A DNA stretch of 64,000 bases from Blastocatellia bacterium (GTDB taxonomy: Bacteria; Acidobacteriota; Blastocatellia; UBA7656): the NCBI GenBank assembly GCA_963728545.1, contig CAVSKO010000002.1:358874-422873 (forward strand). Reading direction: 5' to 3'. Positions within the stretch are counted from its first letter, which is position 1. Each line of letters begins with the position of its first letter. Shown here piece after piece: positions 4,410 through 61,784 of this stretch. The notes beneath the pieces are model-generated. The model saw only the letters and a program-made list of their open reading frames with translations. It was not told the DNA's origin and did not search any database. The translations under genes were made by a program, and so were the position numbers.

Positions 4410-6843
4410 TCACTCATACCTCAACGCCACCATTGGATCCACTCTTGTAGCTCGGCGCGCGGGAAAGATGGTTGCGACCATCGCCGCCGCTGCCAGGACA
4501 AGCGACACCAGCGCGAAGGTCGTAAGATCGGTCGTCCCCACGTCAAAAAGAAGGCCCGACATTATGCTTGATAACACCACGGACAAGGCCACTGCTCCTG
4601 CGAATCCTATGACCAGGCCGATTCCGGTCAGCAGCATGCTTTGGCCTACAACCATCTTCAGTATGTCCAATGATTGCGCGCCGAGCGCCATCCTTATGCC
4701 TATCTCGTGCGTTCGCTGCGTGACTGAATAGGCGATAACGCCGTAGATGCCGACGACGGCTAAGACGAGCGCGACGGAAGCGAAGATGACAAGCAGCAGC
4801 ATGTTGAAACGCTGCCGCGATATTGATTCGGAAAGCACATCCTCCATCGTGCTGATCTCGGCGATGGGCTGTTCAGGGTCTATAGCGCGCACTTCGGCTT
4901 GCGCTGCCGACGCCAACGATCCCGGATCGGTGTGTGTGTGCAGCACAAAATTCATGAAAGCGTAAGGCTCACGCGCATGCGGCCAATAAATGGTCGGTTT
5001 TACTTCAAGGTTCAATCCCATATCGCGAATGTCGCCGACTACGCCCACGATCTCATCCGGCTCGTCGCTGTCCCAGCTTATTACAACGCGCTTGCCGAGC
5101 GGGTCTTCATTAGGCCAGTAGAGCCGCGCCATCGTTTCGTTTATCAAAAGCACTCTCTGGCTCTTCGCCGTATCTCGCTCGTCGAGCATTCGGCCCTTAA
5201 TCAAAGGTATCGCCATCGCGTCAAAATAGCTCGGCGTCACCACTCTCACGTCTGTAACGGGCTGTTCGCCGGGCGGGGGCTCGGGGCGATCTGTGATAGT
5301 GAAACCGGTGGCGGATCGCTGGCCCGCCAGTTGCAAAAAGTTTATCGCGCCTACGGACTCGACCCCTGGCAAGACGCGGAGCCTGTCTTCCAACTGCTTG
5401 AAGAAGGCTATGCGTTGCGCTTCCTGACTATATTTTGATCCCGGGAGCTGGAGTTTCAGAGTCAAAATATTTTCAGTCCTGAAACCGGGCTGTACATTTT
5501 GAAGCCGCATGAAGCTTTTGATCATCAATCCCGCGCCGATCAAAAGCACGAGCGACAAGGCCACTTCGGCTATGACGAAAAGATTCCGAACCATGCGGCT
5601 GCTGCCCGCAACCCTGGTCCCGCGCCCGCCTTCCTTGAGCGTCGCGTTGAGATCGGGCTTCGATGCTTGAAGCGCCGGCACCAGGCCAAAGATTATCCCT
5701 GTTAAAAACGATATGATGAGCGTAAACACAAGCACGCTCCAATCGATTGCGATTTCGTTAAGCCGAGGTATGTTATCAGGGCTGACGGCTACGAGAAGTT
5801 TCAACCCCCAGTAAGCGAGCAACAGCCCGAGCGCGCCGCCGAAAGTTGAAAGAAGCACGCTTTCAACCATCAACTGGTAGATGATTCTTGACCGCGCTGC
5901 GCCGAGGGCTGTCCTGAGCGCCAACTCTTTTTGCCTTGTCGCAGCGCGAGCAAGCAAAAGGTTGGCGACGTTCGCGCAGGCTATCAACAAAACGAAACCT
6001 ACCGCACCGAGCAATAACAGTATGATCGGCCTTATGTCTCCCACGATCTGTTCGTGGAGCGGAACCAGGTTCACATTCCATCCGGCATTAAATTTCAGAT
6101 TGGTCTGCTCTAATTGAGCCGCTATGCCTTCCATCTCTGCCTGGGCCTGGTCGCGGGTCACACCCGGCTTTAGCCTGGCGACGCTCAGCAGGAATCGGCC
6201 CGATGTCGCTCGATAATCAACGGCGGGGTCTAAGGCCAACGGGAGCCATATTTCCGTCTCCCGGTTCATGAAAATAAAAATCGGCGGGCATGACGCCGAC
6301 GACCGTATAACTCCTGCCGTTCAGCGTCACCGATTGGCTGAGTATTTCGTCGCGGCCTCCGAACAACTGTTGCCAGAGGCGATGGCTCAGAATCACGACC
6401 AGTTCATTTCCGGGCCGTCCTTCTTCTTCAGTAAAGGTGCGCCCGCGCAAGGCCTGAACTCCAAGCACGTTGAAAAAGCTGACAGTCACAATCTGAGCGT
6501 CGAGCACTCTAGGCTCACCCTGGCCCGTCAGGTTTCGCTGGCTGTTGGTGGTGAGCGCAGCCATCGGATCGAGCGTCTGGGTTTGTCGCGTCCAGTCTAA
6601 ATAATTAGCGGGAGAGACGACATTGGTAGCGCGATTTCGCGGAATGTTTCTCTCCCAAACCATAACCAGCCTGTCAGGGTCCGTGTAGGGGAGAGGGCGA
6701 AGAAGGACGCCGTTGACGACACTGAAGATGGCTGTGGTTGCTCCGATGCCTAGCGCAAGCGCGATTATCGCAACCGCCGTAAATCCTGGTTGCTTCCTAA
6801 GCACGCGCAAACCGTAACGAATATCTTGCAGAACTTTATCCAT
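4410..6843 (-). pseudogene. MacB-like / FtsX-family ABC transporter permease (Acidobacterial duplicated orphan permease type), split by apparent frameshift near 6220-6300
   Basis: Fragment 6217..6843 is ~65% identical to N-terminus of intact paralog 10716..13142 (MDxxLQDxRY...GFTxxAxLALALGIxAxxAIFSVVN); fragment 4410..6269 matches the remainder incl. two FtsX 4-TM modules; 53-nt out-of-frame overlap. Confidence 0.6.
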
Positions 6844-6870
6844 AGCCTGGCCCTCTCTATTGTCGTCTGC

Positions 6871-8082
6871 TTAATTTTTAGACCGCTGCCGTCTCCGAGG
6901 CGCGTCATCCTGTGTGTTCGGATCGGCTTCGATCTTTATATTCATATCCGCCGCTCGGCGGTCGCGCATCAAAATCATTCCCAGCGCCCAGGTTGCCTGT
7001 TTTCGCACGTGATTATTCTCATCCTTAGTCGCCGCGCTCAAAGCTTCGACGGCGCGGTAATCGCCTTTAAGACCTAACGCCCATGCCGCCTGCGAGCGCA
7101 CATGGCCGTCGGAATCTTTCAAAGCCGCCGTCAAAGTTTCTACGGCCCGGCTATCGCCCTTGAGTCCGAGCGCCCACGCTGCTTGCGACCGCACGTGCGC
7201 GTCTTGATCTTTAAGAGCCTCCATCAAAGGCTCGACCGCCTCACGGTCCCCCTTAAGCCCCAGCGCCCATGCCGCTTGCGAGCGCACATGGCCGTCGGAG
7301 TCTTTCAAAGCAAAGGTCAGTGGTTCCACAGCACGGCTATCGCCTTTTAGCCCTAACGCCCATGCTGCTTGCGAACGAACGTGATTGTCAGAATCTTTCA
7401 AAGCTACTATCAGTGGCTCTACGGAATCTCTGTTGCCTACAAGCCCCGAGGCCCACGCCGCTTGTGAGCGCACTTGCGGTTCCGAATCTTTGAGCGCTGT
7501 AATGAGAGGCTCAACCGCTCGCGAGTCGTGCTTCAAGCCCAGGCCCCATGCGGCTTGCGCGCGAACTTGCCAGGCAGAATCGCTTATCGCAGCAATCAAC
7601 GGCTCAACCGAGCGGTCATCTTTTACCAGCCCCAGCCCGAATGCAGCGTTCTTTCGCGCATACATCTCCTGGGTCTTTAATGCCTGGATGAGCGGGTCAA
7701 CCGCAAGAGGCCCAATCCTTGAAAGGGCGATAGCAGCTTCCTTGCCCACCGTGTCATCATCGTCAAAATGCGTGCTGTTACCTCTCCCACCGCAATCAAG
7801 CACTCTTACCTTCGTCTCATCGCCAAGCAGCCGAACCAGATGCGATATTGCGGGCGCGGCCCGCTCTCGCATCTGTCCAAGCGAGCAGGCGGCAGTAGCA
7901 CGCTCGACGGCGTTGCTGGATTTCAACGCTTCGATCAGCCTGTTCAGGTCAGAAGATGAAATATTCGACTCCTGCTGAGAAAACGTCGTCGTAGTTGCGC
8001 CTGACCCTGCTACGCGAGTCTGCGCGGTTGCGCCAAAAAGGCAGCAAAAGAGCATTGCTATCATTGCCAATCTTTTCATCAT
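6871..8082 (-). CDS. secreted HEAT-repeat (PBS-lyase HEAT-like) protein
   Basis: Signal peptide MMKRLAMIAMLFCCLFGATAQ; ~8 tandem 31-aa repeats VRSQAAWALGLKGDSRAVEPLxxALKD; acidic then Arg-rich C-terminal tail. Confidence 0.75.
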   Translation of the reverse strand: MMKRLAMIAMLFCCLFGATAQTRVAGSGATTTTFSQQESNISSSDLNRLIEALKSSNAVERATAACSLGQMRERAAPAISHLVRLLGDETKVRVLDCGGRGNSTHFDDDDTVGKEAAIALSRIGPLAVDPLIQALKTQEMYARKNAAFGLGLVKDDRSVEPLIAAISDSAWQVRAQAAWGLGLKHDSRAVEPLITALKDSEPQVRSQAAWASGLVGNRDSVEPLIVALKDSDNHVRSQAAWALGLKGDSRAVEPLTFALKDSDGHVRSQAAWALGLKGDREAVEPLMEALKDQDAHVRSQAAWALGLKGDSRAVETLTAALKDSDGHVRSQAAWALGLKGDYRAVEALSAATKDENNHVRKQATWALGMILMRDRRAADMNIKIEADPNTQDDAPRRRQRSKN

Positions 8083-8123
8083 AATCTCCTTTGACTCAGT
8101 TATGATCAGAGAGACTCATCGCT

Positions 8124-10172
8124 CTACAAGTCGCGGCTTGCGCGAGCGCGTCTGCGCGGCCTGGCGGGCCTTGGGTTCGGATTCTTGTCTTCATCCGGGT
8201 TGACCTCGACATCGATGTTGTCGGGTTCTATTTCTATATCTTGAGGCTCCTCATTCCCGTCGGTCTTCGTTTTGGTATCGAGATTTACGTTGATCCTCAT
8301 GGGCCGAGAGTTTACCAAGAGCATTCCGAGCGCCCACGCTGCGTTCTGTCGTACGTGAGGATGTTCGTCTTTCATCGCAGCGTTCAAAGGTTCTACAGCC
8401 CTCTGGCTGCCTCTCATTCCGAGCGACCATGCGGCCTGCGCCCTCACGTTCGCGTTCTCGTCTTTGAGGGCAGCTATCAAAGCGTCAACGGCGCGGCTAT
8501 CGCCTTTCATTCCGAGCGCCCACGCGGCCTGTGATCGAACTCTATGGTGTTCATCCTTCAGAGCGGCCATCAGCGGTTCTACGGCGCGGTGATCTCCCTG
8601 CATGCCGAGCGCCCATGCGGCCTCGGCCCTCACGCCTGCATCCTTATCATTGAGCGCGGCCGCTAACAAATCTGTAACGCTCTGGCCGCCTTTCATTCCG
8701 AGCGCCCATGCCGCCTGTTTTCGCACCTGCTCGTCGCCGTCTTTCAGCGCATCGATCAAAGCCTGGACAGCTCCGCTCGTTGTCTGCTCAGAAGATTTTT
8801 CCTCTTGTTGCTGCGGCTCTGCCGGTTCTACTGGATCTGCTTGATCTTCCTTTGAAGTCTCTTCGTCTTGCGGTTCGGGTTCAGATTGCTGTAGCTGTTC
8901 TTCCGTTTCCGATTCGGCTGTGTGAAACGATGGCGTCATCGTTTGAGTTTCAAATCGAGGATCGTTCTGCTTGAGCTGTGTCCCGATCAATTCAAGACTC
9001 TTTGATTCAGGCGGCGGCGAAGCCTTTGTCTGCGCCGTCGGGCGGAGGCTTGCGAGCGGAAGAATGATCAAGGCAAGGGAAAGAACCACGAGTGACGAAC
9101 CGATTCGGTTCAATCCTCTTCGGTTCAAGCTAGGGTCGAGGATAGCCAGCAGTCGCCCTTCGAGTTGCGACCGGCGCGCCATTGCTACCGCCGTTAAAGA
9201 TGAGCAGCTCCCCGATCTGAGCGAGCGCGCGGTTTCAAGCAGCAGGTCTGCGTAATCCGACGCCCTGGTGCCCGTTCCTAAGACTTGATCGTCGCAGGCC
9301 AACTCGCGCTCCATTCGCAAGCGGCGCGCGGCCATCCACACAAGCGGGTTGAACCAGTAAAGCGCGCAAGCCGTTTGAGCCATTGTCTGCGTCAAACAAT
9401 CTTTGCGTTTGACGTGAGCCAGCTCGTGCATCAATACGACGAAACGGCGTTCGCGCGGCCAGTTGTCAGCATCCGCGGGCAAAAGGATCGCGGGCCGTAG
9501 CGTGCCCCAGGTCTGCGGCATCGCTATCCTTGGGCTTTTAAGCAATGAAACTCGCCTGAGCAAACCTAGCTGGCGGCTTATGTCGAATGAGAGATCGGTC
9601 CAGGCCGGGTCAGTAATTTCATGCGCTTTGCGAGAGAGTAACCATACGGCTGCGATGCCGAATAAAAACCGCCCGAGCGAAATAAAGACCCCCGCGAGCC
9701 AGATTATTAAAATCCATTGACCCCAATTAACGGCTTCGTTTGATGCCACAGCAGATGATTCGTAATCTTTGGAAGCTTGCCCGTGTGAAGCAGGGACAGC
9801 CTGTGCTTCAAAAGCAAGTTTCGCATCCATTGCCGGGCGGGCGGGCTGCGCCTCACGCTTGGCCTTGTCCGTTCGAACAATCGCGGCGCTCCTTGTCGAC
9901 TCATCTGATTTAAGCATTGAAAATGATTCGGGCAAAATAGAGACGCGCCACGACGGGAGCCCATAAGTTAAAACCGGCAGCGCGAGCAGTCCCAAAAGCG
10001 ACAGGCTCCACAAAAGATGACGAGTCGCAGCCGACGCGCGCCGCAATATAGTGTTTAACGCGAGGGTGGCTAGAAGTATCGCCGTAGCTTTCAGCGCGAT
10101 GTCTAAAATAAAGAGCGTCGTCTGGTCTTCAATGGGCGAAAGCTGCAAGATTTCAAATGCCGTGTAGATCAT
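8124..10172 (-). CDS. BlaR1/MecR1-like M56 metalloprotease signal transducer fused to C-terminal HEAT-repeat domain
   Basis: N-terminal TM helices; M56 zinc motif HELAHVKRKD and downstream FNPLVWM; TM helix then acidic/Gln-rich linker, ~6 HEAT repeats (same repeat type as 6871..8082) and Pro/Arg-rich tail; start overlaps stop of BlaI-family gene. Confidence 0.75.
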   Translation of the reverse strand: MIYTAFEILQLSPIEDQTTLFILDIALKATAILLATLALNTILRRASAATRHLLWSLSLLGLLALPVLTYGLPSWRVSILPESFSMLKSDESTRSAAIVRTDKAKREAQPARPAMDAKLAFEAQAVPASHGQASKDYESSAVASNEAVNWGQWILIIWLAGVFISLGRFLFGIAAVWLLSRKAHEITDPAWTDLSFDISRQLGLLRRVSLLKSPRIAMPQTWGTLRPAILLPADADNWPRERRFVVLMHELAHVKRKDCLTQTMAQTACALYWFNPLVWMAARRLRMERELACDDQVLGTGTRASDYADLLLETARSLRSGSCSSLTAVAMARRSQLEGRLLAILDPSLNRRGLNRIGSSLVVLSLALIILPLASLRPTAQTKASPPPESKSLELIGTQLKQNDPRFETQTMTPSFHTAESETEEQLQQSEPEPQDEETSKEDQADPVEPAEPQQQEEKSSEQTTSGAVQALIDALKDGDEQVRKQAAWALGMKGGQSVTDLLAAALNDKDAGVRAEAAWALGMQGDHRAVEPLMAALKDEHHRVRSQAAWALGMKGDSRAVDALIAALKDENANVRAQAAWSLGMRGSQRAVEPLNAAMKDEHPHVRQNAAWALGMLLVNSRPMRINVNLDTKTKTDGNEEPQDIEIEPDNIDVEVNPDEDKNPNPRPARPRRRARASRDL

Positions 10173-10561
10173 TAGCGCCCCTCCTTTCTCGCCTCTTCTA
10201 TCAGCTTGGAAAGCCTGTCCAGGTCCGAAGCCGATAACTTGGACCGCGACATGTCAAGGAGCGTCGCCACCGCGTCTTCTGTCGAGTCGTCAAAAAACGT
10301 CTGTAGCATCTGCTTTAGCGCAGACTGCCTGGCTTTCTCGCGCGACACCGTAGGCAAGTAGACATATCGCAACCCGTCCATCTGGTGCTTCAACAATCCC
10401 TTTTCTTCAAGCAACCGCAGCATCGCCCGCACAGCCGAATAACTGGGCGGGTTTGGCAGGTCCTCCATCACATCGACCGCCGTAGCCTGCGCGCGCTTGT
10501 AAACGATGTCCATAATCTGACGCTCACGGCGGCTCAAATTCGTGTGCATCTGCTTTGTCAT
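10172..10561 (-). CDS. BlaI/MecI/CopY-family transcriptional repressor
   Basis: 129 aa; winged-helix Penicillinase_R pattern (LSRRERQIMDIVYKRAQATAVDV...SYSAVRAMLRLLEEKGLL); translationally coupled to downstream M56 transducer. Confidence 0.8.
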   Translation of the reverse strand: MTKQMHTNLSRRERQIMDIVYKRAQATAVDVMEDLPNPPSYSAVRAMLRLLEEKGLLKHQMDGLRYVYLPTVSREKARQSALKQMLQTFFDDSTEDAVATLLDMSRSKLSASDLDRLSKLIEEARKEGR

Positions 10562-10604
10562 CTGCGGCTCTCCTCTGAGAATCGAAATCGGCTTGAACTC
10601 GACG

Positions 10605-10620
10605 TGCTAATTTTTTAGCA
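10605..10620 (-). promoter_or_regulatory. candidate BlaI operator 1 (perfect palindrome tgctaa-TTTT-ttagca) overlapping putative -10 of blaI-operon promoter
   Basis: Read directly; on minus strand a TTGACT -35 and TAAAAA -10 (17-nt spacer) lie between the two palindromes. Confidence 0.4.
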
Positions 10621-10647
10621 TGTTGGATTTTTTAAGTCAACAAGAAA

Positions 10648-10665
10648 ATGCTAATTTTTTAGCAT
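10648..10665 (-). promoter_or_regulatory. candidate BlaI operator 2 (18-bp perfect palindrome atgctaattttttagcat) upstream of putative -35
   Basis: Second copy of same dyad 44 bp from first; two-dyad arrangement as in classical bla/mec operators. Confidence 0.4.
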
Positions 10666-10673
10666 CAGCTTGC

Positions 10674-10708
10674 AAAAAAATCGCTCTCGAATTCGAGAGC
10701 GATTTTTT
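10674..10708 (-). terminator. Rho-independent terminator (A-run, 11-bp perfect stem tcgctctcgaa/ttcgagagcga, T-run); bidirectional
   Basis: Perfect palindrome around GAATTC flanked by A7 and T6; immediately 3' of MacB-like permease (minus strand). Confidence 0.7.
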
Positions 10709-10715
10709 AGACCTG

Positions 10716-13142
10716 TTATTCGTACCGCAGCGCAATCATCGGGTCGACGCGGGTAGCTTTGCGCGCGGGGATATAGCTGGCGATCAAGGCCACAATCGCG
10801 AGGATCACGGCGACTCCTACAAAAGTGGCCGGGTCTATGGCCTTCACGCCATAAAGCAGGCTGGACATGAACTGCGTTACAATGAGCGCTCCGGCAAGCC
10901 CGATTGCCACGCCTATGCCGACCAGCACAAAGCCCTGCTGTATCACCATAGAAAGTATATGGCTTTGCTGTGCGCCTAACGCCATGCGTATGCCGATCTC
11001 GTGCGTCTGTTGAGCGACCGAATAGTTCATCACTCCGTAAACGCCTACAGCGGCAAGTATCAAAGCGACCGCCGCAAAAATGCCGAGCATAAGCATATTG
11101 AAGCGCGGCTGCGCGACCGAGCCGTAAACTATCTGCTCCATGTTGCGTATGTCGGCTACGGGTTGATCCGGATCGATTGAGGCGATCTCGTTCCTGACAG
11201 CGCCGACGAGGTTCGACGGGTCGCCTTCGGTTCTGACGGCCAGGAACATCTGCCTGGCAGGCGTTTGCTGATAAGGGAAGTATATAAACTCTCGACCTTG
11301 CGCGCTCAGGCCATAGTGTTTGACGTGCGCCACTACGCCGACGACTACCAGCCACGGGGCCGTCGATTGATTGCCGCCAATCTTGACTCTCTTACCGATA
11401 GGGTCTTCATTGGGCCAAAATCTTCTGGCAAAGGTTTCGTCGATTATGCAGACCATCTGAGCGCCTTGCGCGTCGTGGTCGTTGAAGACTCTGCCGGCCT
11501 TCACCTCTATGCCCATCGCCTCGAAATAGTCCGGGCTGGTAACTCGACGGTCGCATTCGAAGCTTGCGTTATCAACGCTTGCAGAAGGCTGCTCGACGGT
11601 CACGGTGCCCGATTGATAAGCGCCGCTCAGGGGAAGGTGTGACACGGTTCCTGCGGTCTTCACGCCCGGCAGCGCCCGCACGCGCTGTATGAGATTCTGA
11701 TAAAAAGGGGTGAGCTGCGCGGCGTCGGAGTACTTCGTCTGCGGGAGCCGCAGTCTGAGCGTGAGCAGATGGTCAGGTTTAAACCCCGGCTCTACTTCTT
11801 GCAGGCGAATAAAACTGCGTATCATCAGCCCCGCGCCCGTCAGCAGCATGAGAGCAAAAGCCACCTCTGCTACGACGAGCACGCTGCGAACCATACGCCC
11901 CCGCGCGCCGCCCGTAGACCCCCGGCCGCCTTCCTTGAGCGTCTCGTTCAGATCGGGTTTTGATGATTGAAAGGCGGGGACCAGTCCGAAAACGATCCCT
12001 GTCAGCATCGCTATTCCGATCGTGAATATGAGCACGCTGGCATCGATCGATACCTCGTTCAGGCGAGGGACATTATCCGGCGCAACCGCGATTAATGCTT
12101 TCAGCCCGAGATAAGCGAGCAACAACCCTATCGCACCGCTGAAGACCGCAAGCACGATGCTTTCCGTCAAGAGCTGGCGGATCAGACGCCCTCGACCTGC
12201 GCCGAGAGCGGTGCGTATGGCTATCTCTTTTTCTCTGGCGACAGCCCGCGCCAACAACAGGTTCGCGACGTTGGTGCAAGCGATCAGCAATACGAACCCC
12301 ACCGCGCCTAACAACATCCACAGCATTGGCCGCACGGTTTTTACCACGTGAGCGTGCAAGGGGACGATGTTTATGCCGAACCCGAATTTATAAAACTCAT
12401 TATCGAGATCGGCGGAAATCTGCTTCATCTCTTCTTGAGCCTGCGCGAGACTGTATTCGGGCTTTATGCGAGCGATTACGCGCATGCCGTGGTTGCCGCG
12501 ATTTTGCTGGCGAAAATCCGCCGCCATCGGCACCCATAGCTCAATGTTCCTCGGAGATTGAGCGTCGGGCGGCAGTATCCCGAAGCCGTCGGGCATCACG
12601 CCTATGACCGTGGCGTTCTGGCCTTCGAGCGAGATAGTTTGATTTATGATGCCGGGGTCGGAAGCGAAGCGACGTTTCCAAAACCCGTGACTCAGTATCA
12701 CGACCCTCTCTCCGCCGGGCCGGTCTTCGGCTTCGGTGAAGGACCGGCCTTGAGACGGTTGGACTCCGAGAGTAGGGAAGAGATTTGCGGTTACGGCTGC
12801 GCCCTGTAGCTGTTCAGGCTCTCCGACGCCCGTCAGGCTGACGCTCGGAAAACTCATCGCCGCAAAATCTTCTATCATCGTGCTGCGCTCTCTCATATCG
12901 GCAAGCTCCGGGCCTGAGACCCAGTTCTGCGGCAGGTCGGGCCCGAAATAAGTCCAGACCAGCACCAGCTTGTCGGGGCTCGCGTAAGGCAGAGGGCGCA
13001 GCAAGACGGTATTGACGACGCTAAAGATCGCGCTGTTTGCTGCAATCCCCAGCGCCAGCGCCAGCACCGCGATGATGGTGAAGCCCGGACGTCTAGCCAA
13101 CATGCGGAAAGAGTAGCGCAGGTCTTGTAGTAACGTATCCAT
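10716..13142 (-). CDS. MacB-like / FtsX-family ABC transporter permease with N-terminal MacB periplasmic domain (ADOP type), intact
   Basis: 808 aa; characteristic N-terminus [22 protein letters not shown]; two FtsX permease modules; overlaps ATPase gene stop (ATGA). Confidence 0.85.
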
Positions 13143-13843
13143 CAGGCGACCTCTACACTTTCTTCAACCACGCGCCCGTCGAACAGGTGTATCTGCCGGT
13201 CGGCGTGGCGGGCGTAGCGCGGGTCGTGCGTCACCATGCAGATGGTCGCCCCCGCGCCGTGAAGCTCTTGAAGCAGATCGATGACGGCCTCGCCGTTTGT
13301 CGAATCGAGATTGCCCGTAGGCTCGTCGGCCAGCAGTATGAGCGGGTCTCCGGCTACGGCGCGGGCTACGGCCACACGCTGCTGCTGGCCGCCCGACAAC
13401 TGGCTCGGCAGGTGTTTTGACCTGTGCGACATCCCGACCCGCTCAAGCGCATCCATCACTCGCTGCTTTCGCTCCGACGATTTCATTCCGCGATAGGTGA
13501 GCGGAAGTTCTACGTTTTCAAAGACCGTCAGGTCGCCTATTAGATTAAAGCTTTGAAATATGAATCCGACCTCGCGGTTGCGCACGCGCGCGCGCGCTGC
13601 CAGGGGGAGATCGGAAACCGGCTTGCCGTCCAGATACTGGTTGCCTTCCGTGGGAGAGTCGAGCAGCCCGAGAATCGAGAGCAGCGTAGATTTGCCGCAG
13701 CCCGACGGCCCGGCGATAGAGACGTACTCTCCTCTCTTTATTTCGAGATGAATGCCCGACAGCGCATGCGTTTCTACTTCATCGGTGAGAAAAACCTTAG
13801 TCACCCCTTCCAGGCGAATAAGCGGATGGTCAGCAGAGTTCAT
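13142..13843 (-). CDS. ABC transporter ATP-binding protein (MacB/LolD-type)
   Basis: Walker [13 protein letters not shown] signature [14 protein letters not shown], Walker [13 protein letters not shown]. Confidence 0.9.
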
Positions 13844-14165
13844 ACTTTCTTGTCCTCCGAAGATTTTTTTTCATACTTATCCCGCTTCTTTCGGTGCGCG
13901 TATGCAGTCTTAGACGTTACTACGCAGGATTCTGTTATCAAGGTGCATAATAATGAAGCACCCGATTCCTTATCTCTTAAGTAAAACTGCGCCAGTTGAA
14001 GTCCGAAGCCAAAAGGACTGCAAAAAGCGAATTTCAAATGACCGACTCCCCAACAAGCAGGCCTCAGGCTTTGGGCACTTTCTGTGAGTGGCGCGAGATA
14101 AAAAAAAGTTTCGAATTTTTTTTGCGTTAAAACGAGGGTGATCTTTAGCATGAAGATTGAAACGA

Positions 14166-14200
14166 GATGGACGCGGCTGTCGTACGGTTATCGAACTTTC
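14166..14200 (+). promoter_or_regulatory. possible ECF-type promoter (TGAAAC-N17-CGTA) upstream of ECF sigma gene
   Basis: Motif resembles sigW/ECF autoregulated promoters (AAC in -35, CGT in -10); sequence-only. Confidence 0.3.
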
Positions 14201-14355
14201 GTAGCCGTACGAAAGTCCCTTTTTTTCGAGAGACGGCACAAAAGCTGCAACCTTTTCATTGCGTCCGCCACTTACTGGTCGAAACGAGGATGAAGTGGCA
14301 AATGCTGGAAGCAATTAGCCTGGTGGGCCAGCCGAGCGGACGCGCCGGGGCTCTG

Positions 14356-14922
14356 ATGAACAGTTCAGAAGAACTCATTTCGCGCGCCCGCCGTGGCGAT
14401 GATGAAGCCTTCCGCCTGATCTTCGAGCGGTACGGCAGACCCATCATCAGCTTCATCTACGACATGGTGGGTCAGCGAGACCTGGCCGAAGAGTTGACGC
14501 AGGAGACTTTTGTGCGCGCTTACAAAAACATCGGCGGTCTGAGAGATGAGACGAAGCTGTTAACCTGGCTGTTCGGCATAGCCAAGAACGTGGCGCGCGA
14601 GTTGATACGCGCCCGCTATAAAGATGACGGCAAAGTCGGCATAGATGATGACCGCGTGATGGAATTGAGCGATAATAATCTTCTGCCCGAAGACGTGCTT
14701 TTGAACAAAGAGCTGAACGGAGTGATTCAAACCGCGCTCGGGGCGCTCGATGAAGATAAGCGATTGGTCTTTTCGCTCAAAGTGTTTCAGCAGCGGAGCT
14801 ACGAAGAGATTGCGGAGATAACCGGCTTTTCTATTCCAAAGCTCAAGACCGATCTGCATCGCGCGAGGACGGAGATGCGCCGCCGCATCCGTCCATATTT
14901 GGGAGCTAGCAATGAAGTGTGA
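14356..14922 (+). CDS. RNA polymerase sigma-70 factor, ECF subfamily (ORF track start 14167 probably over-extended)
   Basis: Region 2 (FRLIFERYGRPIISFIYDMVGQRDLAEELTQETFVRAYKNI) and region 4 HTH (SYEEIAEITGFSIPKLKTDLHRAR); 3' end overlaps anti-sigma start. Confidence 0.8.
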   Translation: MNSSEELISRARRGDDEAFRLIFERYGRPIISFIYDMVGQRDLAEELTQETFVRAYKNIGGLRDETKLLTWLFGIAKNVARELIRARYKDDGKVGIDDDRVMELSDNNLLPEDVLLNKELNGVIQTALGALDEDKRLVFSLKVFQQRSYEEIAEITGFSIPKLKTDLHRARTEMRRRIRPYLGASNEV

Positions 14923-58000: not shown

Positions 58001-59248
58001 GTGGTGAAAATCGAGAGAAAGAAAACTGTGGCCGTAAACGTGGGCGGCGTCCTGGCCGGCGGCAACAACCCTATCGTCGTCCAATCGATGACGAACACCG
58101 ACACGGTAGACGTTGAGGCAACCGCGCTACAGGTCGAGCAACTCGCTCGCGCAGGTTCAGAGCTTGTCCGCATCACGGTCAACACTCGCCAGGCCGCAGC
58201 CGCTGTCCCGCACATCGTTGAAAAACTCGGCGAGCGCGGGATTGCAGTACCCATCGTCGGAGACTTTCACTATAACGGCCATATATTGTTAAAACAGTAC
58301 CCGGAAACGGCGCGCGCGCTGGCAAAGTACCGCATCAATCCGGGCAACGTCGGGCCGGGTCAGCACCACGACAAGAATTTTCAATCGATGATCAATGTCG
58401 CGATTGAAAACGATAAGCCCGTTCGCATAGGCGTCAACTGGGGGTCGCTCGACCAGGGGTTGTTGACGCGACTGATGGATGAGAACGCCGCGCGGCCCGA
58501 CCCGAAGGACGCGAAGGAAGTGATGCACGAAGCTATCGTGTTAAGCGCGATTGAATCGGCGGAATTGGCCGAAAGTTGCGGGCTCGATCACGACAAGATT
58601 ATACTGAGCGCGAAAGTTTCAGGCGTGCAGGATTTGATCTCGATCTATCGCGTTCTTTCAGCCCGTTCGGATTACCCGCTTCACCTCGGCCTGACCGAGG
58701 CCGGGATGGGGAGCAAAGGCATAGTCGCGTCTACGGCTGCGCTGGGCGTGCTCTTACAGGAAGGCATAGGCGACACGATTCGCGTCTCACTGACTCCTCG
58801 GCCCGGCGGAGACCGCACCGAAGAGGTCATAGTCGCGCAGCAAATTCTCCAGACCATGGGATTGCGCAGCTTCTCGCCGATGGTTACTGCCTGTCCCGGC
58901 TGCGGGCGGACGACCAGCACGCTGTTTCAAGAGATGGCCGAAGATATTCAAAACTACATACGCGAGCAAATGCCCGAATGGCGCGAGCGGTACAATGGGG
59001 TTGAGGAGTTGAAAGTCGCCGTGATGGGTTGCGTGGTCAACGGGCCGGGGGAATCGAAGCACCAGAACATCGGCATATCGCTTCCGGGAACGGGTGAAGA
59101 GCCGCGCGCTCCCGTTTTCGTGGACGGGAGAATGTTCAAAACGCTTCAAGGGGAATCAATCGTCGCCGATTTTATTCATATCCTCGACGAATATATTGAG
59201 TCGCATTACAAAAGAAAAGATGAACCTGTTGCCGAGCTACAGGTCTGA
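58001..59248 (+). CDS. ispG: 4-hydroxy-3-methylbut-2-enyl diphosphate synthase
   Basis: GcpE family: VQSMTNTDT, [4Fe-4S] cysteines CPGCGRTTS ... GCVVNGPGE; GTG start. Confidence 0.9.
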
Positions 59249-59258
59249 CCGATGGCAC

Positions 59259-61784
59259 TCACCTCTCAGTCTTTTTCTCTTCCGGGTTATGCGCCTTTCT
59301 GATCCGGGTGATCGTGAACATGATGACATTATTGGCGAAGCTAGGCAGGTCGCCCGTCTTGGCCAGCGCCTCAAGTGCAGGAATCGCGCGCTCATCTCCG
59401 AGCAGTCCCAGCGCCTGAATTGCCGCGAACCGGATTTGTAAGGTCGGGTTTTTCAAAGCAGCGACGATCAGCTCGTAAGCTTTTTCATTCCCTTTGCCGA
59501 CCTGTGACAACAACTCTATCAATGTGACGCGCACGGCGGGGGGATTCCCAGGCACGGCGTACTTCAGACCGATCTCTATTGCGCGCGGGTCTTTCAGCGC
59601 GGTAAGCCCCGCTATCGCGCCCGCGCGGACTGTGCCTTGCCACGACTCCTGTTTGACCGTGTCGGCAAGAACATCGAATGCGCTAGACGAGCCGGTCTGG
59701 CCAAGCGCTTTTGCCGATTCGGCGATTGTCAAATAGCTCGGATCGTTTTTTATTGTGCTTATAAAAAGGTCCGCGAGTTTCTCATCCCTGAAAGCGGCAA
59801 GCCCTTTGACCGCTTCCCGGCGAACTCGGGCGTCTTTGTCTTTGACCGCTTCGAGCAACCCCGCGCGAGACGGCCCGGTTCCGAAAGCCGATAACGCTTT
59901 CGTGGCTTCGACCCGCACCCCCCAGAAACCTTCGCGCTTCACGGATTCTGAGAGCGCGAGAGCGGCAGCTTCCGTGCGCTGCGCCTTCAGATCGATGGCC
60001 GCGCGCAGCCGCCCCATCACGTCGCTGTCGTGAAGCAACTGGTAGGCGATCTCTTCGTCGTTCCGCTCGAACCTCACGCGCTTTATGATCTGATTCCCGC
60101 GATCAAAATTGATTATCAGCGGTTTCGAATCAACCGCGAAAGAGAACTCTTTTTCCGCTTTGTCGATCCAGACACGATTTATCTTTTCGCCCGCAGCAGT
60201 CGTTATGGCAATATCTACGGGCATCGTGAAAAACTCGGGTGACTCGTACCAGGTGCGCCTATCATCCTTAGCTTGAGTCTGTTTGACGGTAAGCCTCAGC
60301 GTATGCGCCCCCTCGTCATAACTCGACGCGATCTCGAATTCAGGATGCCCCATCTTGTAAACCCACTCGTCGAAAAACCATTGCAGGTTCTGGCCGGTCG
60401 CTTCCTCAATCGCGATAACGAGGTCTTGAGTCTCAACCGTCCGGTACTGGTTTTTCTTCAAATAATGGTTTAGCGCTTTCCAAAACATCTCGTCGCCAAG
60501 AACGAAGCGCAGCATGTTCAATACCGCTCCCCCGCGCTGGTACGAATAAGCGTCAAAGACCGAATCCGGGTTGGGGTAACGCCTGGTCGAAATCGGGCGA
60601 CGTATCCCGTTCGTCCAGGCCTGGAAGTACGTCTCCTGGTCTGCGTAGATGTCGTAAAGATAATCGTCGCGCCCCCTATCGTGCTCGGTCCATACAGCTT
60701 CCATCACCGTCGCAAAAGATTCGTTCAGCCACAATTCGCCCCAGTCTCGGCAGGTGAGCGTGTTGCCGAACCAGGAATGAGCAAGCTCGTGCGCAACGAT
60801 ATCGTCGGAAGATACGTCGAGCAGCGCGCGCCTATCGTTGACGGCTGTATCGGTCATCGTCGTGGCCGTGATGTTTTCCATCGCGCCGCCGAAGTCGCGC
60901 ACCATCGTCTGGGCGTATTTCGGGTAAGGGTATTCGAACCCGGTCTTTTCGGAAAACAACGCGACCATCTTCGGCAGCTTGTTGAAAGAGACTCGCCCTT
61001 CTTCCACCTGATCGCGGTAGACGTAGGAGATGACGGGCACGTTTTTATACTGGTCTTTCAACTCGACGTATTCGCCTACGATGATCGAGACCAGATAGCT
61101 TGAGAAGGGCCGATCCATCTTCCAGTGCCAGGTCTTTGTCTTTTTCGCAGCGTCCGGTGTGACGTTCACGAGCGAGCCGTTTGAGATGACATTAAATTTG
61201 TCTTCGACCCTGGCAATCAATTCGCTGGTCGCCTTGTCGTTTGGATAGTCATAACACGGGAACCAGTAGTGATTATCTTGAGTCTCTCCCTGCGACCAAA
61301 TCTGGTAAGGCCGTGTCGGGTCGTTTTCGTTGGGCGTGATAAAGGTCAAGCCTTTCTTTGGCGTTGCCGAGTAGTTGATCTTAACGGCGATGTCGCTTCC
61401 CGCCGCGTAGGATTTATCAAGCGAGATAAAGAGTTTCTCATTCCCTTCGTAACGGAACTTCAGCGGCTGGCCCTCGCCGAGCTTAACCGTGTTTATTGTC
61501 ATCTCGCCCGCGTCAAGCTCGATCTCCTTAAAATCGCCTTTGAACGGGCGGAGATTGACCGTAGTTTCGCCGGCGACAGATCTCTTTGCCCAATCGAAAC
61601 TGACTTCGATGCGGTAGTGCCGAACGTCATAATCGTGGCTGCGCGGCCACTGATACGGCGGCGCAACGGGAGCAGGCGCAGGGGCAGGCGCTTGCGATGT
61701 GGCCGGCAGGGCCGAAATCGTAAGAACAAAAGCCAGCACGGCGGCTCGCACAGATTTATACCAATACGAGGAATAGAAACTCAT
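59259..61784 (-). CDS. M1-family zinc aminopeptidase (aminopeptidase N-like) with C-terminal HEAT-repeat region
   Basis: GAMEN-like exopeptidase motif GGAMEN, HELAHSWFGN...E zinc motif; signal peptide; C-terminal ARVRREAVKGLA-type HEAT repeats. Confidence 0.85.
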   Translation of the reverse strand: MSFYSSYWYKSVRAAVLAFVLTISALPATSQAPAPAPAPVAPPYQWPRSHDYDVRHYRIEVSFDWAKRSVAGETTVNLRPFKGDFKEIELDAGEMTINTVKLGEGQPLKFRYEGNEKLFISLDKSYAAGSDIAVKINYSATPKKGLTFITPNENDPTRPYQIWSQGETQDNHYWFPCYDYPNDKATSELIARVEDKFNVISNGSLVNVTPDAAKKTKTWHWKMDRPFSSYLVSIIVGEYVELKDQYKNVPVISYVYRDQVEEGRVSFNKLPKMVALFSEKTGFEYPYPKYAQTMVRDFGGAMENITATTMTDTAVNDRRALLDVSSDDIVAHELAHSWFGNTLTCRDWGELWLNESFATVMEAVWTEHDRGRDDYLYDIYADQETYFQAWTNGIRRPISTRRYPNPDSVFDAYSYQRGGAVLNMLRFVLGDEMFWKALNHYLKKNQYRTVETQDLVIAIEEATGQNLQWFFDEWVYKMGHPEFEIASSYDEGAHTLRLTVKQTQAKDDRRTWYESPEFFTMPVDIAITTAAGEKINRVWIDKAEKEFSFAVDSKPLIINFDRGNQIIKRVRFERNDEEIAYQLLHDSDVMGRLRAAIDLKAQRTEAAALALSESVKREGFWGVRVEATKALSAFGTGPSRAGLLEAVKDKDARVRREAVKGLAAFRDEKLADLFISTIKNDPSYLTIAESAKALGQTGSSSAFDVLADTVKQESWQGTVRAGAIAGLTALKDPRAIEIGLKYAVPGNPPAVRVTLIELLSQVGKGNEKAYELIVAALKNPTLQIRFAAIQALGLLGDERAIPALEALAKTGDLPSFANNVIMFTITRIRKAHNPEEKKTER

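Follow-up and report, generated by a model that had tools for sequence, protein, structure and literature searches.

Paired TGCTAA-N4-TTAGCA dyads at the promoter of a BlaI-like repressor gene in a Blastocatellia bacterium are probable autorepression operators

In a 64-kb stretch of the genome of a Blastocatellia bacterium (GCA_963728545.1, contig CAVSKO010000002.1; the window, hereafter, is this whole stretch), a short inverted repeat occurs twice in front of a gene encoding a BlaI-like repressor, which raises the question of what binds it and to what effect. Our answer, which we hold with considerable but not complete confidence, is that both dyads serve as operators for the repressor encoded just downstream, which would in this way repress its own transcription. 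The same repeat is found in the same place before the equivalent gene in many soil bacteria, and it is therefore very probably the repressor's own binding site.

Two dyads around a predicted promoter

The two copies form an exact 17-nt direct repeat, TGCTAATTTTTTAGCAT, on the + strand at positions 10605-10621 and 10649-10665, with a start-to-start distance of 44 bp; its 16-bp core, TGCTAATTTTTTAGCA, is exact at 10605-10620 and 10649-10664 (+ strand). Each copy is an inverted repeat of the form TGCTAA-N4-TTAGCA, in which the four central A/T bases make up a non-symmetric spacer. The distal candidate operator (10648-10665, minus strand, ATGCTAAAAAATTAGCAT; exact match) is a 7-4-7 inverted repeat with arms of 7 nt (ATGCTAA/TTAGCAT), and the proximal candidate operator (10604-10621, minus strand, ATGCTAAAAAATTAGCAC; core 10605-10620, exact match) has arms of 6 nt (GTGCTAA...TTAGCAT). 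The original prediction, made from the letters of the window, had described an 18-bp palindrome, tgctaa-T6-ttagca, found twice 44 bp apart. The two copies and the distance between them hold, but the element is not a true palindrome and the T6 center was miscounted, since two of the six T belong to the right arm and the real spacer is 4 nt long.

Both dyads are contained in a single 154-bp intergenic region, between the stop codon of an ADOP-family permease gene and the ATG of the blaI-like gene at 10561. This region had been taken for a 150-bp leader; its upstream part looks instead like the terminator of the preceding gene, as described below. In the source genome the dyad scan covered the window, where no third match was found either to the half-site pattern TGCTAANNNNTTAGCA at up to two mismatches or to the full 16-mer at up to three. 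Shuffled controls gave a mean of 0.52 matches to the 16-mer at up to three mismatches and reached two matches in 7 of 100 shuffles; both real matches are exact.

The dyads are arranged around a predicted sigma-70-type promoter on the minus strand. Its -35 hexamer, TTGACT (10640-10635), is followed after a 17-nt spacer by the -10 hexamer TAAAAA (10617-10612), and the last three bases of the spacer are TGC (10620-10618), so that an extended -10 element of the form TGnTAnnnn can be read at 10612-10620. The left half of the proximal dyad, TGCTAA, doubles as this extended -10, in the form TGnTAA. As the -10 hexamer ends at 10612, transcription is predicted to start 6-8 nt further downstream, near 10605 (10603-10607, minus strand). 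Relative to this start, the proximal dyad would span approximately -16 to +1, and the distal dyad would be centered near -51.5, its 16-bp core ending 8 nt upstream of the -35. The ribosome-binding site, GAGGAG (10570-10575, minus strand), is 8 nt before the ATG and is kept as GGAG or GGGAG in close orthologs; about 30 nt separate it from the proximal dyad, and the predicted 5' untranslated region is only about 44 nt long. The hexamers, their spacing and their strand are thus as originally proposed, as is the placement of one dyad over the -10 and the other upstream of the -35, a geometry that is conserved in orthologs. The proposal that both hexamers lie between the dyads is right for TTGACT only, as TAAAAA lies inside the proximal dyad.

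Conservation of the dyad upstream of orthologous repressor genes

When GTDB was searched with each species represented by one genome, at least 556 matches were confirmed, and 80 orthologous loci with 56-80% protein identity were analyzed. These come from Blastocatellia, Pyrinomonadaceae, Terriglobia, Bryobacterales, Vicinamibacterales and Aminicenantes, with the Acidobacteriota among the phyla represented, and also from Gemmatimonadota, Zixibacteria, Latescibacterota, Planctomycetota and others. Within the 160 bp before each blaI ortholog (12.7 kb in total), TGCTAA-N4-TTAGCA occurs 40 times without mismatch, 77 times with at most one mismatch and 115 times with at most two, as against 0, 3 and 10 times in the other 558 kb of these loci. 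At up to one mismatch, this amounts to a more than 1000-fold enrichment in front of blaI orthologs, and 66 of the 80 loci have at least one site. The dyad is accordingly not scattered at random, there being no further copy in the window and no exact copy in the 558 kb of ortholog flanks.

The consensus over the loci is r-TGCTAA-wwww-TTAGCA-y. When spacers of 2-8 nt were allowed, the spacer was 4 nt in all but a handful of two-mismatch matches, and the core TGCT-N8-AGCA is enriched 250-fold upstream of the orthologs. Position is constrained along with sequence: the distance from the end of TTGACN to the TGCT of the dyad is 14 nt in 32 instances (the mode) and 12-15 nt in 51, and successive dyads start either 16-21 bp (mode 19) or 42-45 bp (mode 43-44) apart. 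Across the family, it is the proximal dyad, over the -10, that is universal. The distal dyad is optional, with 19 of 81 loci (about a quarter) having an upstream dyad that ends 7-8 nt short of TTGAC; a third dyad just downstream of the proximal one is likewise optional, and some loci have all three. When seven close relatives (80-94% identity) are aligned, no substitution is seen in the half-sites, in the 8-nt linker TTTTCTTG or in TTGAC, in contrast to the rest of the region, which diverges. The enrichment, the fixed distance to TTGACN, these invariant islands and the co-variation with the repressor described in the next section all support the idea, put forward in the original prediction, that the two dyads are candidate operators in a two-operator autorepression layout.

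The protein that would bind the dyad

The blaI-like gene (10172-10561, minus strand) encodes a protein of 129 amino acids without cysteine, which matches Pfam family PF03965 (Penicillinase_R) at 101.1 bits (cut-off 22.6; E = 6.2e-29) over profile positions 1-115 of 115. Its AlphaFold model shows a winged-helix domain, with helices H1, H2 and H3 (residues 41-53) and a wing in the form of a beta-hairpin, followed by a helical domain of the dimerization type with three helices at the C-terminus. Values of the predicted local distance difference test (pLDDT) are 85-91 for the DNA-binding domain and 55-72 for the C-terminal one. The best 12 matches of the model in the PDB are all MecI or BlaI, at template modeling (TM) scores of 0.52-0.64 and 14-17% identity. 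By both fold and sequence, the protein is a full-length member of the BlaI/MecI/CopY family (PF03965).

The symmetry of the dyads implies only some dimeric binder, and the operon could in principle be controlled by a different transcription factor. We consider this highly unlikely, although it is the alternative that fares best. Across several phyla blaI is the sole gene that always accompanies the dyad, and the upstream neighbors vary (an ADOP permease, a histidine kinase or a DUF711 gene); moreover, autoregulation is the rule in the BlaI family (PMC1935004). Variants of the half-site also follow variants of the BlaI recognition helix. The predicted helix (residues 41-53) is nearly invariant among the orthologs: in 65 loci it contains YSAVRA(M/L)L, and the inner bases of the half-site are AA in 122 of 202 half-sites. 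In seven loci, mostly named Bryobacterales or Solibacter, the helix contains YSAVRAKL, and the inner bases are RC in 11 of 14 half-sites and never AA; in three loci (two Longimicrobium, one Gemmatimonadales) it contains YSAVRAA, and they are GA in 6 of 6. This tracking is supportive rather than conclusive evidence that the repressor reads the dyad.

Three near-exact dyads fall outside blaI promoters, and two of them lie 23 and 32 bp upstream of HEAT-repeat genes (in loci L025 and L075) that are not directly behind the M56 metalloprotease gene, the usual partner of blaI. These HEAT-repeat genes are transcribed separately, and the site therefore appears to act at another promoter within the functional module, which suggests that the HEAT-repeat protein regularly belongs to the regulon. 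The dyads in question are at 6809-6824 in L025 and 1755-1770 in L075, and L075 has two, 19 nt apart.

Metagenome contigs were also scanned, with the exact 16-mer, giving at least 120 matches. Among the matches listed, 103 are in A/T-rich contigs and were taken as chance, given that the 16-mer is itself A/T-rich, which makes such a scan a poor tool for defining a regulon. The informative set comprises the 17 contigs with a G+C content of at least 0.5 among the matches listed: ten carry the dyad 19-108 bp upstream of a blaI homolog, one has two dyads at the contig end, one (L116) overlaps a CIRCE element before hrcA, one (L082) precedes an unrelated gene, and four are without blaI association. 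In L082 (JAABUU010000205.1) the dyad TGCTAATTTTTTAGCA, at 8329-8344, follows TTGACA at 14 nt and is upstream of a gene other than blaI; the open reading frame starts about 180 bp downstream of the dyad and encodes a protein with a signal-like N-terminus and a CSECH motif. Judging from this arrangement, the gene may be an extra regulon member in another lineage.

Proposed mechanism and alternative readings

In the mechanism that we propose, a repressor dimer on the proximal dyad (approximately -16 to +1) would sit on TGCTAA, the extended -10 of the promoter formed by TTGACT, the 17-nt spacer and TAAAAA. A dimer occupying these bases and RNA polymerase, through its sigma subunit, would compete for them. 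The distal dyad, 44 bp or about four helical turns upstream, would carry a second dimer on roughly the same face of the helix, directly upstream of the -35 in the zone of UP elements, where this dimer could strengthen repression, either by obstructing polymerase or through cooperation with the proximal one. The negatively autoregulated unit would include blaI, the gene for the M56 protease and the gene for the HEAT-repeat protein. By analogy with BlaR1/BlaI (PMC1935004), the M56 protease would respond to an extracytoplasmic signal perceived at its HEAT domain, and its activation would lead to cleavage of the repressor; the operon would then be induced, and with it the secreted HEAT-repeat protein.

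The distal site might alternatively be positive in its effect, with a BlaI dimer near -51.5 recruiting RNA polymerase and BlaI acting as a dual regulator. A center at about -51.5 falls in the region touched by the alpha subunit of the polymerase, and a site that only some family members have may contribute a function of its own. The characterized family members are repressors, however, and two-operator layouts have been read as double repression (PMC7253601, PMC1935004); in addition, since the distal site has the same sequence as the proximal one, the two should be occupied under the same conditions. Only a slim chance attaches, in our view, to activation from the distal site.

A slimmer one attaches to the idea that the repeat is a promoter element only, a duplicated palindromic extended -10 (the TGCTAAAAA side, apart from the right half-site) that binds no repressor. 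It is true that in most orthologs the left half of the proximal dyad is TGnTAA at the right distance from TTGACN. Yet the right half, TTAGCA, is conserved as strongly as the left, although a -10 has no need of it, and the distal and downstream copies are without a -35 partner at promoter distance. Among close relatives, furthermore, a dyad may have either AAAA or TTTT as its central A/T tract, a flip that alters the -10 hexamer and keeps the symmetry; a symmetric dimer site would tolerate this and a fixed -10 hexamer would not, in agreement with the dyad being a site for a dimer.

The chance that the dyads act as RNA hairpins, in an attenuator or a terminator, or as CIRCE elements bound by HrcA is negligible. 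A consensus scan of the + strand listed the proximal dyad with its T-run as terminator-like, a candidate we rejected because no + strand gene ends there. We likewise rejected an RNA-structure reading on folding, which gave weak hairpins of -5.8 and -6.9 kcal/mol, compared with -21 kcal/mol for the real terminator nearby. The proximal dyad lies at the -10 and would be mostly untranscribed, the letters of the arms are conserved without compensatory change, and no Rfam family was matched: a scan at a permissive threshold brought up nothing beyond chance similarity to miRNA and intron models, with scores far under the gathering cut-offs.

As to CIRCE, the words TTAGCA and TGCTAA occur in it too, and the match in metagenome contig L116 overlaps a CIRCE-type arrangement upstream of an open reading frame that, by eye, we take to be hrcA-like. 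The CIRCE consensus is TTAGCACTC-N9-GAGTGCTAA, with 9-nt arms separated by a 9-nt spacer, and is found before chaperone genes. Its arms are in the opposite order from those of the dyad, and both their length and their spacing differ; this reading was rejected, and the likeness is one of letters only, with L116 showing the CIRCE arrangement.

Several points weigh against autorepression through these dyads. Fourteen of the 80 orthologs have no site at up to two mismatches; in some the site is degenerate, in some there is nothing, and some may sit inside operons. The -10 hexamer TAAAAA is without the usual final T, and a consensus promoter scan did not call the proposed blaI promoter, because the scanner demands T at position 6 of the -10; the promoter was assigned on the grounds of its conservation across orthologs, independently of the scanner. 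The co-variation of helix and half-site comes down to two clade-level switches, each variant helix group being one clade, and shared ancestry could produce it. In the HMMER alignment the stretch 'vlnf' of MecI, which we take to hold the Asn-Phe cleavage site, is aligned with 'tlld' of the repressor; the cleavage site of S. aureus BlaI is thus not conserved in sequence, and proteolytic inactivation is proposed by analogy only. The scan of the source genome for regulon members, finally, covered 64 kb, and the support for the operators consists of sequence comparison.

Genes of the operon and its surroundings

The gene for the M56 (BlaR1-type) membrane metalloprotease (8124-10172, minus strand; 682 amino acids) is co-oriented with blaI, and its start overlaps the blaI stop codon in the sequence ATGA. 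The protein matches PF05569 (E = 1.1e-41) and HEAT_2 (E = 6.2e-37); hydropathy and an HExxH scan show four hydrophobic segments and the motif HELAH at residue 249. Its C-terminal domain is composed of HEAT repeats in place of a penicillin-binding sensor, and a stretch of 75 residues (381-455) separates them from the last hydrophobic segment. Only M56 and HEAT/Arm-type repeats were matched in this protein, with no penicillin-binding (transpeptidase-like) domain, and the generic BlaR1 model scored 118 bits against a cut-off of 400, covering the protease part alone. At least 75 of the 80 loci have an M56 gene after blaI, and the C-terminal domain of its product is variable.

The third gene (6871-8082, minus strand) begins 41 bp past the M56 gene and encodes a HEAT-repeat protein of 403 amino acids (HEAT_2, E = 3.6e-59). 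From its signal-like hydrophobic N-terminus the protein is predicted to be secreted, and the gene is probably co-transcribed with that for M56. Repeat units of this protein (6871-8082) and of the M56 C-terminal domain (8283-8807, minus strand) are 50-64% identical and give many shifted self-alignments; the sensor domain and its secreted partner consequently look like paralogous repeat arrays. A more distant HEAT-repeat coding region at 59200-59925 (minus strand) has 29-34% identity to the repeats of the operon, and neither a dyad nor a blaI gene is nearby. No second copy of blaI was found in the window.

Directly upstream of the blaI unit is the ADOP-family permease gene (13142-10716, minus strand; TIGR03434, 1043 bits). 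At its 3' end, a 34-bp palindromic hairpin (10675-10708) with perfect 17-nt arms, flanked by A6 and T7, folds at -21 kcal/mol and looks like a bidirectional intrinsic terminator. The sequence of the stem differs among orthologs, its pairing being kept by compensatory changes. A consensus terminator scan missed this hairpin, probably because the stem absorbs the T-run. The terminator marks the upstream limit of the promoter region, and hence the blaI unit needs a promoter of its own. Among the seven close relatives the upstream permease is kept in five, and in two of those five the downstream M56 gene is without a HEAT annotation on record.

Further upstream, the permease is paired with an ABC ATPase (13142-13843, minus strand), and this pair, which precedes the blaI unit, is divergent from a gene for an ECF-type sigma factor (14167-14922, + strand; Sigma70_r2, r4_2). 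Downstream, a second ADOP-family permease gene (4413-6843, minus strand) starts 27 bp after the HEAT-repeat gene. Its coding sequence changes frame near 6262 (residues 1-192 in one frame, 198-808 in another), and its product shares approximately 50% identity with the ADOP permease upstream; the change of frame points to either a frameshifted pseudogene or a sequencing error. The named neighbors within 4413-14922 are ADOP permeases, an ABC ATPase, a HEAT-repeat protein and an ECF-type sigma factor.

Implications

BlaI/M56 pairs abound in the Acidobacteriota, Gemmatimonadota and related soil phyla, and there is hardly any knowledge of their inputs or targets. We suggest, tentatively and at somewhat less than even confidence for the proposal as a whole, that TGCTAA-N4-TTAGCA is the operator of a large uncharacterized BlaI/M56 branch (at least 556 matches, in the Acidobacteriota, Gemmatimonadota and other soil and sediment phyla), in which the half-site serves as the extended -10. 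The output would include a secreted HEAT-repeat protein, and the input might be an envelope or environmental signal, unrelated to beta-lactams, received through a periplasmic HEAT domain. If this is true, the correlation between helix position 47 and half-site positions 5-6 would amount to a simple recognition code for the branch, and the natural variants of helix and half-site would offer a test of how the winged-helix family reads DNA. An operator consensus with fixed promoter geometry could be used to predict regulons by genome scanning, and it supplies defined DNA for binding and reporter experiments. It also indicates that the textbook operator, TACANNTGTA, is not valid for the whole BlaI family. 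The dyad, unsurprising in principle, would thus be an entry point to a large uncharacterized signaling group in soil phyla.

Comparison with known systems

The bla and mec systems of S. aureus and B. licheniformis share with this locus a PF03965 winged-helix repressor of MecI/BlaI fold, its pairing with an M56 membrane metalloprotease carrying HExxH, and operators that are dimer-type dyads, more than one per promoter, overlapping core promoter elements. The family repressors of these systems autoregulate (PMC1935004), and their known operator core is TACANNTGTA (PMC1935004, PMC7253601). This core is absent from the 154-bp region, so that the dyad is indeed unlike the staphylococcal TACA/TGTA operator, as originally noted: in TGCTAA-N4-TTAGCA the conserved bases are at the edges of the 16-bp site, with arm centers about 11 bp apart, whereas those of TACANNTGTA are central and about 6 bp apart. 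The proteins are also just 14-17% identical. The original prediction had called the arrangement the classical bla/mec layout, which is apt with regard to function but not to layout. Here blaI precedes the M56 gene, where the classical order is blaR1 then blaI; the sensor is made of HEAT repeats and is not a penicillin-binding domain; and there is no divergent target, as no open reading frame among the window neighbors at 4413-14922 matched beta-lactamase models and no PBP2a target adjoins the locus. The pair in the window is therefore a BlaI-family repressor with its M56 partner, and in operator, sensor and resistance gene it is distinct from a bla/mec beta-lactam regulon. To judge from the sequence, with two dyads of the same sequence over or next to the -35 and -10 of its own predicted promoter, it has the layout of two-operator autorepression.

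CopY/CopR repressors belong to the same Pfam family and have a 16-bp dyad operator, often in two copies tens of bp apart (PMC7253601). The authors of that work propose that the distal copy of the cop box blocks the -35 and that the proximal copy blocks polymerase (PMC7253601). The cop box, RNYKACANNTGTMRNY (KACANNTGTA), differs in being conserved centrally, in contrast to the conserved edges of the dyad, and none is present in the 154-bp region. The repressor, having no cysteine, is without the C-terminal CXC metal motif of CopY, and it scores 56 bits on the CopY model TIGR02698, against a cut-off of 122.

Closer in kind are the BlaI/BlaR pairs that have no sensor domain, namely Rv1846c/Rv1845c of M. 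tuberculosis, a pair in M. abscessus, and PvmSR of P. aeruginosa; the sensor-less pairs of P. aeruginosa are reported to govern functions other than beta-lactam resistance (bioRxiv 10.64898/2026.08.03.742534). Like the pair in the window, they combine BlaI and M56 without a beta-lactam sensor domain. Their proteases simply lack a C-terminal sensor, however, while here there is a HEAT-repeat domain and a secreted HEAT-repeat partner. The PvmSR preprint (bioRxiv 10.64898/2026.08.03.742534) gives no binding motif and no operator resembling TGCTAA-N4-TTAGCA. Nor did we find this dyad described elsewhere in the literature searched, including that on BlaI operators outside the Firmicutes, although many subscription papers were beyond reach and novelty is unproven. 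A DAP-seq study of C. thermocellum mentions 'repeats of TACATC', which we could not assign to a regulator and set aside. The autorepressed pair of repressor and protease is a familiar design; relative to the literature searched, the operator consensus is its new element.

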